Source of the DNA: a virus
IMG/VR virus record: IMGVR_UViG_3300045988_183620
Direction: 5' to 3' (one strand)
DNA length: 64,000 nucleotides
A program made the position numbers and the translations under genes. How positions within the stretch are numbered: the first letter of the stretch is position 1; the number at the start of each line of letters is the position of its first letter. Below are positions 11,640 to 13,495 of this stretch, piece by piece. The notes beneath the pieces were generated by a model. It made no database searches and was not told the origin of the DNA. It saw only the letters and a list, made by a program, of their open reading frames with translations.

Positions 11640-12010
11640 GCAGGATGTTTTATGCTTGTTATCATCCCAAATCAGGGCAGCCAACCCCGCATCAAGCACC
11701 ATTCGGCAGCCACGCCGACGGATTCTGTATTGTACCCTCTCCGCCGTTTTCCGGTCTCATTCGCGACTGATACCGGGACTCTCGGATACTATCAGGCACA
11801 GCACCTGTTTGCCGATTCTTTTTGAGGCTGTCCATTGGCATTCGACAGCGGACCACAAGTGGACCATGCTCGCTTTATTTAGTGTCGTGCGTACGGTGAC
11901 AGCGACGGTGGAGCGGGCAGCGGGATTCATTTCTATTCACGCCACCCATGTGGGCAGCGACAATTGCTATACCCCGCGTGGTGGGTCGCGTCTGGCTTTC
12001 GCTTTTGCGG
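11640..12010 (-). ncRNA. candidate structured non-coding RNA segment
   Basis: About 370 bp that is GC-rich and hairpin-dense (cgcgtggtgggtcgcg, ggaccacaagtggacc). It carries only short mutually overlapping ORFs on both strands and lies between a tRNA and a small gene. Confidence 0.25.
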
Positions 12011-12013
12011 CCT

Positions 12014-12208
12014 TTATTTTGCTTCGCTGTTTATGTACCCAAACCAGCAGCTTTCGCAGCCAGCGAACCCCGCGCACCCTTCCTCGTACACGTCATTCCA
12101 TGGCGGACATCTGAAATTCTTTTCAAAGACTTTTACCATGTTCTTTTTGATATCTTCCACGGGTTCGCTGAACTTCATTCCTTTTGTCAATTCTTCAAAA
12201 ACCGTCAT
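12014..12208 (-). CDS. small Cys-rich protein
   Basis: 64 aa with GAAGGAAGGAAAG ribosome-binding site then AAAAATG; motif CPPW...CAGFAGCESCW. Confidence 0.5.
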   Translation of the reverse strand: MTVFEELTKGMKFSEPVEDIKKNMVKVFEKNFRCPPWNDVYEEGCAGFAGCESCWFGYINSEAK

Positions 12209-12214
12209 TTTTCT

Positions 12215-12245
12215 TTCCTTCCTTCTCGCCGCGTGGAGGCTACCA
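12215..12245. repeat. conserved-loop hairpin element, copy C (abuts the tRNA 3' end)
   Basis: ttcct-tctcgccgcgtggaggctaccagcgt-aggaa. Confidence 0.45.
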
Positions 12246-12247
12246 GC

Positions 12248-12322
12248 GTAGGAATATTGGAGGAGTATATCGGGGTCGAACCGACGTTATCTGCTTGGAG
12301 GGCAGAGGTATTAACCGTTATA
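12248..12322 (-). tRNA. tRNA-Gly(UCC)-like with C33 (loop CCTCCAA)
   Basis: D-arm GTAT-AACGGTTA-ATAC, anticodon stem TCTGC/GCAGA, T-arm GTCGG-TTCGACC-CCGAT, CCA encoded. Confidence 0.6.
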
Positions 12323-12329
12323 CGAATAC

Positions 12330-13095
12330 TCCACAAGATTGCGGGTGAACCCTCATTTAGCCCCGCCATGATGTTCGTTTAGGAGGTAGTCGGCCCCGAA
12401 CGCCATCTTTACACCACCTGACAATCTTGCGAATCTCATCGTTGACTATGCGTGAGAATCCAAGAGAGTGCTTGGGTGTTGGTCAACTTCAAATTTTGAG
12501 CCCTGTCGTTGATTCCCTGTCAAATCGGGTTAACGGTTGTCGTTGGGCTGTGTGTGAGACTGCGGCGAAACTTACCAGCTGCCGTGCAGTAGTCTCGCCT
12601 ATACGGCTGTGTCGCGTCTGGCTGCGCCCCGGCTTTACGGGGATGCTCGTACGTCTGCATGCTTGATAGGGCGGGATTTGTTGTTTCCGAACCGTAGTTC
12701 GAGAGGAAGCACTCGTCCACACAACTTCCTGGCCTTTAGGGATACCGCTCACACCGGGAGTTGTGATGCGATTCCCACGATTGAAGACTTCGCCATGTCG
12801 CGGGTATTGACCGCAACAATGTTGCCCACTGCTCACCACGAGGAGGTTGTCTTCTGAGCAGTAGCGCGGATTGTGTGGAGCAGTCCGCGCAAGCAGCTTC
12901 CGCGTATTCCCTGCTGCTTGAGGGAGCTTGTTGAGCGTCCGCCGACGTCTAATCTCCGAAGAGAATACCCTGACGGGTACTACAGCAAGAAGCATCGGTT
13001 TTAAGCCGTGATGTTGGGCGCAGACGCTGTATTATCTGTCAGATTTGACCCTCCGAATAGGTTTTTGAGACGATTTGCCAAATGCGAAAAGCATT
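12330..13095 (-). ncRNA. candidate large structured RNA, part 1 (ROOL/GOLLD-like?)
   Basis: About 760 bp with no credible ORF (only Arg-rich overlapping frames) and many GC-rich hairpins (ccccggctttacgggg, gcgcgga...tccgcgc). Being embedded in a mobile-element tRNA array resembles the ROOL and GOLLD RNA families (from memory). Confidence 0.3.
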
Positions 13096-13096
13096 T

Positions 13097-13140
13097 GTTG
13101 TCCACCACCCGCCGCGTGGAGGCTGTCTCATGGGTGGCAG
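13097..13140. repeat. conserved-loop hairpin element, copy D
   Basis: ccaccacc-cgccgcgtggaggctgtctcat-gggtggca. Confidence 0.5.
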
Positions 13141-13495
13141 GGCGCGTCGATAAGAACCGGCGTGCCCTGATAGGCGCTACCTATCGTGATGTTCTAAGGC
13201 GGGAGCTGCCCGCCATCAGGTTTACCTGTGCATCGGATTATCCCTTTCACTTATGCGGCCTGTCGGACGTAATTAGTGCATAGGCGTTCTCCTTTGTTCA
13301 GATTTTGACAGTCGGACGAGAATTACTTCTGCATCGGAGTGCCCTCCCTGTTAGATTTCGACCTGTTTATCGTCCGTGTCAGGACGTGTTCTGGATGGGT
13401 GGTGTCACACCACCGTGTTCCGTGCTTACGCGTCGCACCTGTACTCCACTATTACGCCTTATCGCGCGATTGACGTGTTCCCTTGTACTACATCC
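13141..13495 (-). ncRNA. candidate large structured RNA, part 2
   Basis: Non-coding, with hairpins ggcgggagctgcccgcc and ggtggtgtcacaccacc. Confidence 0.25.

Follow-up and report, generated by a model that had tools for sequence, protein, structure and literature searches.

We analysed 64,000 nt of viral DNA (IMG/VR record IMGVR_UViG_3300045988_183620; this whole stretch is hereafter the window) whose 22 tRNA genes all lie on the minus strand and in which the interval 11640-13495 had been predicted to be about 1.5 kb of non-coding sequence giving rise to one or more large structured RNAs. Followed along the minus strand, on which all the features named here lie, the locus starts with tRNA-Asp (13498-13574) and continues with a spacer RNA, R3 (13139-13497), which runs from the tRNA-Asp 3′ end to the cleavage site of a hepatitis delta virus (HDV)-like ribozyme (13066-13138), a spacer between ribozymes, R4 (12863-13065), and a second HDV-like ribozyme (12781-12862). 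A variable leader (12665-12780) connects the latter to the 330-nt core of R2 (12333-12664, composed of R2a, 12553-12664, and R2b, 12333-12552), and R2 is followed by tRNA-Gly(UCC) with an encoded CCA (12258-12332). Behind it lie the 5′ half of a truncated HDV-like ribozyme (12223-12254), a 64-aa open reading frame (ORF) with its own ribosome-binding site (12014-12208), a tRNA-derived remnant recognized by partial similarity (~11908-11980), the 270-nt R1 (11637-11907, with a 5′ hairpin segment, 11863-11907, and a core, 11637-11862) and tRNA-Thr(CGU) (11561-11636). Since the two ribozymes, the truncated third and the tRNA remnant, all overlooked in the original prediction, lie inside the interval, it is a mosaic and not 1.5 kb of one thing, about 155 nt of it belonging to two members of a known ribozyme class. 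The expectation of large structured RNA was borne out as to the presence of conserved, covarying structured RNAs, but not as to a single 1.5-kb molecule.

No close relative of the window DNA was found among the GenBank phages (50,697 records), in which the interval was matched at its tRNA genes only and the adjoining 25 kb had no nucleotide match; one large protein gave only weak partial matches. Many relatives of the window DNA were present in IMG/VR and among human-gut metagenome contigs, some of them reaching 374-389 kb, and because of these large relatives we take the source to be a very large (~370 kb), uncultured human-gut phage. Among the relatives (referred to below as L006, L209 and so on), the distant lineage L209 was reached via a 54%-identical homologue of the protein ORF130 (10976-11368, minus strand). 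At least 119 contigs of IMG/VR and 75 from human-gut metagenomes carry R2 followed by R1, in constant order; a search of bacterial species genomes with the R2 motif gave four chance matches and no R2.

The original prediction had seen no credible gene in the three stretches that make up most of the interval, and this was confirmed, the frames there being short and overlapping. In alignments with relatives the variability by codon phase is flat (0.14/0.11/0.11 for R2 and 0.12/0.10/0.14 for R1), and the indels of R1 and R2 are mostly of 1-2 nt and mostly no multiple of 3. ORF130, used as a positive control in the same genomes, showed 0.07/0.05/0.27 by codon phase and zero indels. This 130-aa protein is encoded almost always after tRNA-Thr(CGU), downstream of R1; Pfam and PHROG gave no match to it, and its homologues are confined to this phage group, and for these reasons it was not retained as a protein partner of the RNAs.

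R2 occurs once per related locus in the blastn and nhmmer searches, its 3′ end abutting tRNA-Gly in 74 of 83 unique copies. The consensus fold of 32 sequences comprises 82 pairs, with 99% of the cells paired, and compensatory change, the sign by which the original prediction proposed to recognize structured RNA, was seen at 20 pairs of the core as compared to 2-6 in slid controls, in which the pairing partners were moved by 1-3 columns and the compensatory pairs recounted. When R2b was aligned together with L209, 22 of 51 pairs showed compensatory change (slid controls, 3-7) with 96% of the cells paired; the 5-bp helix 11 of R2b exists in four fully different paired versions, and in L209 R2b is followed by tRNA-Pro rather than tRNA-Gly. 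R2a, the 5′ third, would form a hairpin with the palindromic loop AGA-CGUACG-A, a CCCCG/CGGGG hairpin and a long hairpin. In the main lineage it hardly varies, even between clades whose adjoining sequence differs by ~20%, and this constancy leaves its predicted structure without covariation. R2a is absent from the L209, L283 and L263 types, L209 keeping only R2b. The variable leader is missing in the L065 group, where the ribozyme abuts the R2 core, and the distance between ribozyme and core in the relatives is either ~0-5 nt or ~107 nt. These comparisons identify R2 as a predicted structured non-coding RNA of a new family that matches no Rfam model. All-against-all column covariation was set aside, as it returned hundreds of spurious pairs because the sequences fall into few clades. 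Within R2b, at ~12375-12385 (minus strand), lies ACCUCCU, which equals the anti-Shine-Dalgarno end of 16S rRNA and is present in three clades including L209; one large clade has ACCUACU in its place. Motifs spotted by eye in R1 and R2 (RNase P-like P4, T-box, anti-Shine-Dalgarno) were dropped, as they were engaged in local pairing or not shared by all clades.

In most relatives the CCA of tRNA-Gly is immediately followed by R1, which extends up to the first base of tRNA-Thr(CGU); among 114 unique copies, 95 are flanked by tRNA-Gly and 99 by tRNA-Thr(CGU). Between the window and L209 it is 78% identical, as compared to 69-72% for the flanking tRNAs, 60% for the ORF130 DNA and 59% for R2b, so R1 is more conserved than the tRNAs that adjoin it. 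Ten compensatory pairs were counted (slid controls, 0-3), with 98% of the cells paired. We consider the covariation of R1 to be of moderate and its conservation of very strong weight, and by these comparisons R1 appears as a further new RNA family with no matching Rfam model. The 5′ segment, conserved in all lineages, is predicted to form a GUCG/CGAC stem with a loop that contains CGUACG. In L030 (7318-9430; also in the L008, L027 and L028 types and in L222) a 2.2-kb element encoding a 579-aa transposase (phrog_506) lies inside R1, between this 45-nt hairpin segment and the core; both halves are conserved, and the 5′ segment stays beside tRNA-Gly in L030.

Features that had drawn attention to the interval proved less telling. 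The four hairpins quoted in the original prediction exist (~12627-12642, 12864-12890, 13198-13214 and 13398-13414), but none of the four loops is of the GNRA type that had been claimed. The GC content is indeed raised, though modestly (0.53-0.555 vs 0.488 for the window), and the minimum free energies (MFE) of R2 and R1 are within chance (z = -0.45 and -0.11), those of R3 and R4 being only mildly low (about -2.2), so that hairpin density taken alone is no more than chance, and the real evidence is the comparison with relatives. As to the suggested transcription in line with the minus-strand tRNAs, the functional strand is the minus strand, because the ribozymes lie on it and because the many G-U pairs of R2 fit a minus-strand RNA only and would otherwise become A-C mismatches.

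Searches of Rfam 15 covered 64 kb, 5.5 kb and 1.4 kb, with the gathering threshold and E<=10 as cut-offs (the E<=10 spans being 9500-15000 and 11369-12790), and the relatives L006, L023 and L065 at E<=1. Even at E<=10 only tRNA and HDV-like ribozymes were matched, which speaks against the suggested membership of ROOL or GOLLD; likewise, the models for RNase P, tmRNA and group I/II introns, also proposed for the search, and those for 6S, SRP, T-box and HEARO RNAs did not match the interval at this threshold. ARAGORN called no tmRNA in the window. Since tmRNA and HEARO RNAs were detected elsewhere in the relatives, the method is able to detect them.

The interval ribozymes were matched by RF02682 with 37 bits (13066-13138; E 2.6e-4) and 40.6 bits (12781-12862; E 4e-5) in the 5.5 kb searched, the gathering score being 44, which two paralogues in the window clear with 47 and 45.3 bits. 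A custom model and alignment, made from 20 copies from the window and three relatives, gave 68 bits for 13066-13138, a copy that is itself in the model seed, and 57.7 bits for 12781-12862, and recognized eight complete copies plus one 5′ half within the window. The nested double pseudoknot (P1, P1.1, P2, P3, P4) is kept across the 20 copies: pairing reaches 100% in P1 (where 6 of 6 pairs covary), P3 and P1.1 and 89% in P4, and the 76% of P2 is a figure lowered by an alignment shift; altogether 17 of 21 pairs covary (4-9 in slid controls). All aligned copies read G-C-[U/A/G]-A-A at J4/2 (GCGAA in 12781-12862, GCAAA in 13066-13138) and share the C at the catalytic-cytosine position at the J4/2 start. 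Cleavage of 13066-13138 is predicted 5′ of G13138; ribozyme 12781-12862 has an A at +1 and a long P4, and its orthologue in L006 (8850-8931) lies directly upstream of R2.

The six further full copies in the window, also on the minus strand, lie at 10306-10379, 10573-10644, 13691-13766, 14025-14096, 50187-50257 and 52713-52784. Three of the further ribozymes are placed 4-7 nt upstream of tRNA-Ser, tRNA-Met and tRNA-Asn, and those at 52713-52784 and 50187-50257 lie in gene 5′ untranslated regions (UTRs), 25-55 nt upstream of ORF starts at 52687 and 50131. Across 255 unique contexts in relatives, the ribozyme was found 4-15 nt upstream of a tRNA 5′ end in 94, upstream of R2 in 64 and cutting at a tRNA 3′ end (theta-like) in 29, while 97 contexts had no identified downstream feature. 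Given this spread over tRNAs, R2 and 5′ UTRs, the ribozymes look like general punctuation marks of long transcripts. In common with the Faecalibacterium prausnitzii-type (RF02682) and theta HDV-like ribozymes, the two interval ribozymes have a gut-phage setting, an association with tRNAs, a nested double pseudoknot, the J4/2 cytosine and covariation in P1, P2 and P4. Theta ribozymes, however, are minimal, lack P4 and are cleaved no more than 5 nt from a tRNA 3′ end (PMC10879173), whereas both interval ribozymes possess a P4 hairpin and their predicted cleavage sites lie 359 nt after tRNA-Asp (13066-13138) and 203 nt after the previous ribozyme (12781-12862); with a P4 and with a cut away from tRNA 3′ ends, they fall outside the theta class as that work delimits it. 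Moreover, most copies here have their 3′ end 4-15 nt before a tRNA 5′ end, upstream of R2 or in a gene 5′ UTR; the first of these placements, with the ribozyme 3′ end beside the tRNA 5′ end, is opposite to the published theta placement.

The material between tRNA-Gly and R1 is particular to the window and its closest kin. The truncated ribozyme, just 3′ of tRNA-Gly, matches positions 3-34 of the 74 in the custom model (E 0.09), and in L277, L230 and L283 a complete ribozyme occupies its place between tRNA-Gly and R1. The 64-aa ORF, which has no Pfam or PHROG match, is inserted into the truncated ribozyme and is present only in the five closest relatives. The tRNA remnant joins a tRNA-Met-like 5′ part (repeat D8, 83% identical to 13656-13684) to a tRNA-Gly 3′ end, which aligns with the tRNA-Gly 3′ ends of relatives; neither ARAGORN nor Rfam RF00005 called it a tRNA. 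The truncated ribozyme together with the ORF is best read as an insertion into an arrangement of the L277 type. Beside the remnant, at 11982-11997, there is also a 16-nt, 94% identical copy of the R2a loop motif AGCCAGACGCGAC (12608-12623), which suggests recombination among repeated RNA modules.

R3 is conserved at 65-80% in most relatives over ~13168-13365 and has an MFE z of -2.17; compensatory change was seen in its terminal hairpin and in two others, the GGCGGG/CCCGCC hairpin among them. Its core holds three units spaced ~50 nt apart, each composed of a Shine-Dalgarno-like run, 7-8 nt, AUG, one or two codons and a stop: GGGAGG, 8 nt and AUG CAG AAG UAA in mini-ORF 1 (13323-13334); AAAGGAG, 7 nt and AUG CAC UAA in mini-ORF 2 (13273-13281); and AAAGGGA, 7 nt and AUG CAC AGG UAA in mini-ORF 3 (13222-13233), all on the minus strand. 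The binding run, AUG and stop persist while the codons vary (MH*, MQ*, MY*, MQK*, MM*, MHR*) among 40 unique R3 copies and L209 (3728-3870), mini-ORF 1 reading AUG CAG UAA or AUG CAG AAG UAA and mini-ORF 3 of the relatives AUG AUG UAA, AUG UAC UGA or AUG UAU UGA. Such units are no commoner across the window than in shuffles (13 vs 18 +/- 4); the three within 100 nt form a cluster. At its 3′ side R3 has a hairpin (~13140-13167) that ends one base before the cleavage site, and R4 likewise closes with a hairpin, GCGCGGA...UCCGCGC (12864-12890), that stops one base short of the next cleavage site. R4 has an MFE z of -2.18 and is conserved in only ~12 relatives; it is, along with the R2 leader and the 5′ end of R3, among the poorly conserved parts.

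The format of the R3 units resembles that of the bar minigenes of phage lambda (Hernandez-Sanchez et al., 1998, as cited in PMC2490762), elements by which tRNA is trapped as peptidyl-tRNA. Both consist of a Shine-Dalgarno run, AUG, one or two codons and a stop; the R3 units differ in that they stand three in tandem in an RNA bounded by a tRNA and a ribozyme and in their codons, for His, Gln, Tyr, Met, Lys and Arg. By this analogy they may be minigenes of the bar kind, and the alternatives are ribosome loading or a protein sponge of the GGA type.

Taken together, the ribozyme motifs, the covariation, the strand, the synteny and the modular presence or absence of the parts are the observations on which an interpretation can be built. 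We consider it probable that the interval belongs to a long minus-strand operon of stable RNAs, of which it forms the non-tRNA portion, made up of several modules with ribozymes and tRNAs as their boundaries. Self-cleavage of HDV-like ribozymes takes place at their own 5′ end and yields a 2′,3′-cyclic phosphate on the upstream and a 5′-OH on the downstream product, and RNase P cuts at tRNA 5′ ends; because these places are known, we infer where the ends of the RNAs would be made, provided that the modules are co-transcribed and the cuts do occur. R3 would be set free as the stretch from the tRNA-Asp 3′ end to the first ribozyme cut, with its 3′ hairpin carrying a 2′,3′-cyclic phosphate, and would present three ribosome-binding minigenes. 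The 3′ ends of both R3 and R4 would be made by ribozyme cuts, and the two hairpins lying one base before the cleavage sites support such punctuation. R2 would begin with the ribozyme still joined at its 5′ side and obtain its 3′ end from RNase P at tRNA-Gly, while R1 would start at the tRNA-Gly 3′ end, or at a ribozyme in some relatives, and stop where RNase P cuts at tRNA-Thr, tRNA 3′ ends being cut by 3′-end processing enzymes. R2 and R1 would then be free, stable RNAs during infection, any function of theirs most likely being exerted on translation or on the tRNA machinery. The idea that 5′-OH ends protect these RNAs was dropped, since RNase J1 degrades the 5′-OH product of the glmS ribozyme.

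Several points weigh against an operon of separate stable RNAs. No promoter or terminator above chance was found; R2 and R1 fold no more stably than shuffles; and both interval ribozymes score below the Rfam gathering threshold. The 10 covarying pairs of R1 are reached in 72 of 500 column shuffles, only few clades having been sampled, and as the relatives represent few clades, the compensatory counts overstate the number of independent events. The invariance of R2a may reflect constraint or instead a recent sweep or spread. Finally, R2 and R1 always touch a tRNA 5′ end and could therefore be cis-acting leaders.

The last point leads to the main rival explanation, in which R2 and R1 serve solely as cis-acting 5′ leaders in the precursors of tRNA-Gly and tRNA-Thr; they would regulate or aid the next tRNA in its transcription, folding or RNase P processing and be degraded after cleavage. 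The abutment without a spacer would fit such leaders, as would the unremarkable folding energies, the recurrence of the R2 3′ part before tRNA-Pro in L209 and L270, as if it travelled with tRNAs, and the U-run that follows the last R2 hairpin in one clade in the manner of a terminator or attenuator. Yet most other tRNAs of the window have spacers of a few to a few tens of nt, a covarying multi-helix structure of 270-330 nt far exceeds what RNase P needs, and R1 is more conserved than the tRNA that follows it (78% vs 72%); we regard leaders as unlikely. A lower probability still falls to the view that R2, tRNA-Gly and R1 are one giant RNA of the GOLLD/ROOL kind, with a variable 5′ domain, a tRNA-bearing linker and a conserved 3′ domain. 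Both of these classes lie near phage tRNA islands (PMC12286853), the order R2, tRNA-Gly, R1 holds in most contigs, with R1 at the 3′ side the most conserved and R2 at the 5′ side variable, and the 45-nt segment after tRNA-Gly, which remains with R2 and tRNA-Gly where the transposase element splits R1, pairs in a joint consensus fold with the R2 5′ end (AUGC, GUACG, GACGCGAC), the sole variable base being a predicted bulge. The gain from cofolding lends modest support (-12.7 kcal/mol vs -5.3 +/- 3.1 for shuffles, 11 of 500 being as good). However, the predicted inter-domain helices are invariant and so without covariation, and L209, L283 and L263 lack the proposed partner R2a and nevertheless keep the 45-nt segment and R1, so that closing helices between R2 and R1 were rejected. 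Moreover, no GOLLD or ROOL match was obtained at the thresholds given above, either in the window spans or in L006, L023 and L065; the full self-cleaving ribozyme between tRNA-Gly and R1 of some relatives would cut such a unit in two; and in the window a 350-nt insertion with a predicted translated ORF sits at this very junction. The invariance of these helices, the lineages that have R2b without R2a, the interposed ribozymes, the duplication of the R2 3′ part before tRNA-Pro in L270 and the lack of the whole module in L217 and L218 all argue for several separate RNA modules, which we favour over one RNA.

Two explanations remain. If it were functionless recombination debris, conserved only through the close kinship of the phages, the truncated ribozyme, the chimeric tRNA remnant, the copied R2 motif and the poor conservation of R4, the R2 leader and the 5′ end of R3 would all be expected; but R1, R2b and the R3 core are retained where the ORF130 protein is only 54% identical, neighbouring spacers (13700-13950 and 12850-13100) are lost in the same comparisons, and the helices are maintained by compensatory change, which makes debris very improbable. 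Even less credit, close to none, can be given to a protein encoded in a reassigned genetic code. Gut phages with tRNA-adjacent HDV-like ribozymes commonly recode stop codons (PMC10879173), yet the window has no suppressor tRNA, and coding of this sort is refuted by substitutions that lack the codon periodicity of the ORF130 control and by indels of mostly 1 or 2 nt that fall out of frame.

Under the preferred reading, an operon of separate stable RNAs, one may go a step further and speculate that R1, with R2 as its variable partner, constitutes a new class of large trans-acting phage RNA directed at the host translation or tRNA machinery, and that R3 is a dedicated minigene RNA; we hold this to be possible, if rather doubtful. 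If true, action of R1 in trans would explain why it is held more constant than the adjoining tRNAs, and R3, with its ribozyme-made 3′ end, would load ribosomes or trap specific tRNAs as peptidyl-tRNA. The conserved triple minigene may be a natural counterpart of the lambda bar elements.

Known systems offer partial parallels. Stable non-tRNA RNAs co-transcribed with phage tRNAs and released by the tRNA-processing machinery exist in phage T4 (species 1 and species 2); these are ~120-140 nt long and involve no ribozymes. R1 and R2, as proposed stable RNAs in a phage tRNA cluster, can be likened to them by context only, being longer and lying in a locus with ribozymes. The 3′ETS-leuZ sponge of Escherichia coli, excised from a tRNA precursor, acts in trans after processing; sponges of this type are short, unstructured, base-pairing and host-derived, in contrast to R1 and R2, which are long, multi-helix and phage-encoded. 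GOLLD and ROOL are large structured RNAs of phages and prophages, found near tRNA islands and unexplained in function, GOLLD consisting of a conserved 3′ region, a variable 5′ region and a linker that sometimes contains tRNAs (PMC12286853). The succession of variable R2, tRNA-Gly and conserved R1 resembles that of GOLLD, but R2 and R1 match neither model at E<=10, are smaller (330 and 270 nt), and can be separated by ribozymes or insertions, each being found without the partner parts of the other.

GOLLD and ROOL, large structured RNAs beside phage tRNA islands, have stayed unexplained even with their structures solved, and R1 and R2 would add two unrelated new families in the same niche, from a very large and common human-gut phage. 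Their ends are precisely predictable, and therefore both are easy to synthesise and test. The ribozyme class is already known, and the setting of the new families R2 and R1 is of a familiar kind; the locus further presents HDV-like ribozymes as apparent general punctuation before tRNAs, non-coding RNAs and genes, where theta ribozymes sit behind tRNAs.

Some minor observations were made outside the interval. At 6358-9408 (plus strand) and 6403-9288 (minus strand) two opposite open frames of ~1000 aa share 3 kb with a GC content of 0.56-0.57 and a strong AT skew, of which likely only one is real; the minus-strand frame, the only one of the two scanned, gave a sub-threshold zinc-finger match and nothing more. 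In the tRNA region of three relatives we found a phage tmRNA with the tag DNNRYASPIAA (L006, 13860-14259; L218, 5810-6209; L283, 5651-6050), and L065 carries HEARO (IscB-type guide) RNAs at 375-687 and 19349-19588. ARAGORN also reported a tRNA with a two-base anticodon (ca) in L065 and L024 (10424-10499), L216 (1877-1952) and L269 (7403-7478), which occupies the place of the tRNA-Ala of the window and points to an unusual anticodon loop. Lastly, a 116-nt Rfam tRNA match in L006 (16059-16174) may be a tRNA with an insertion or intron.

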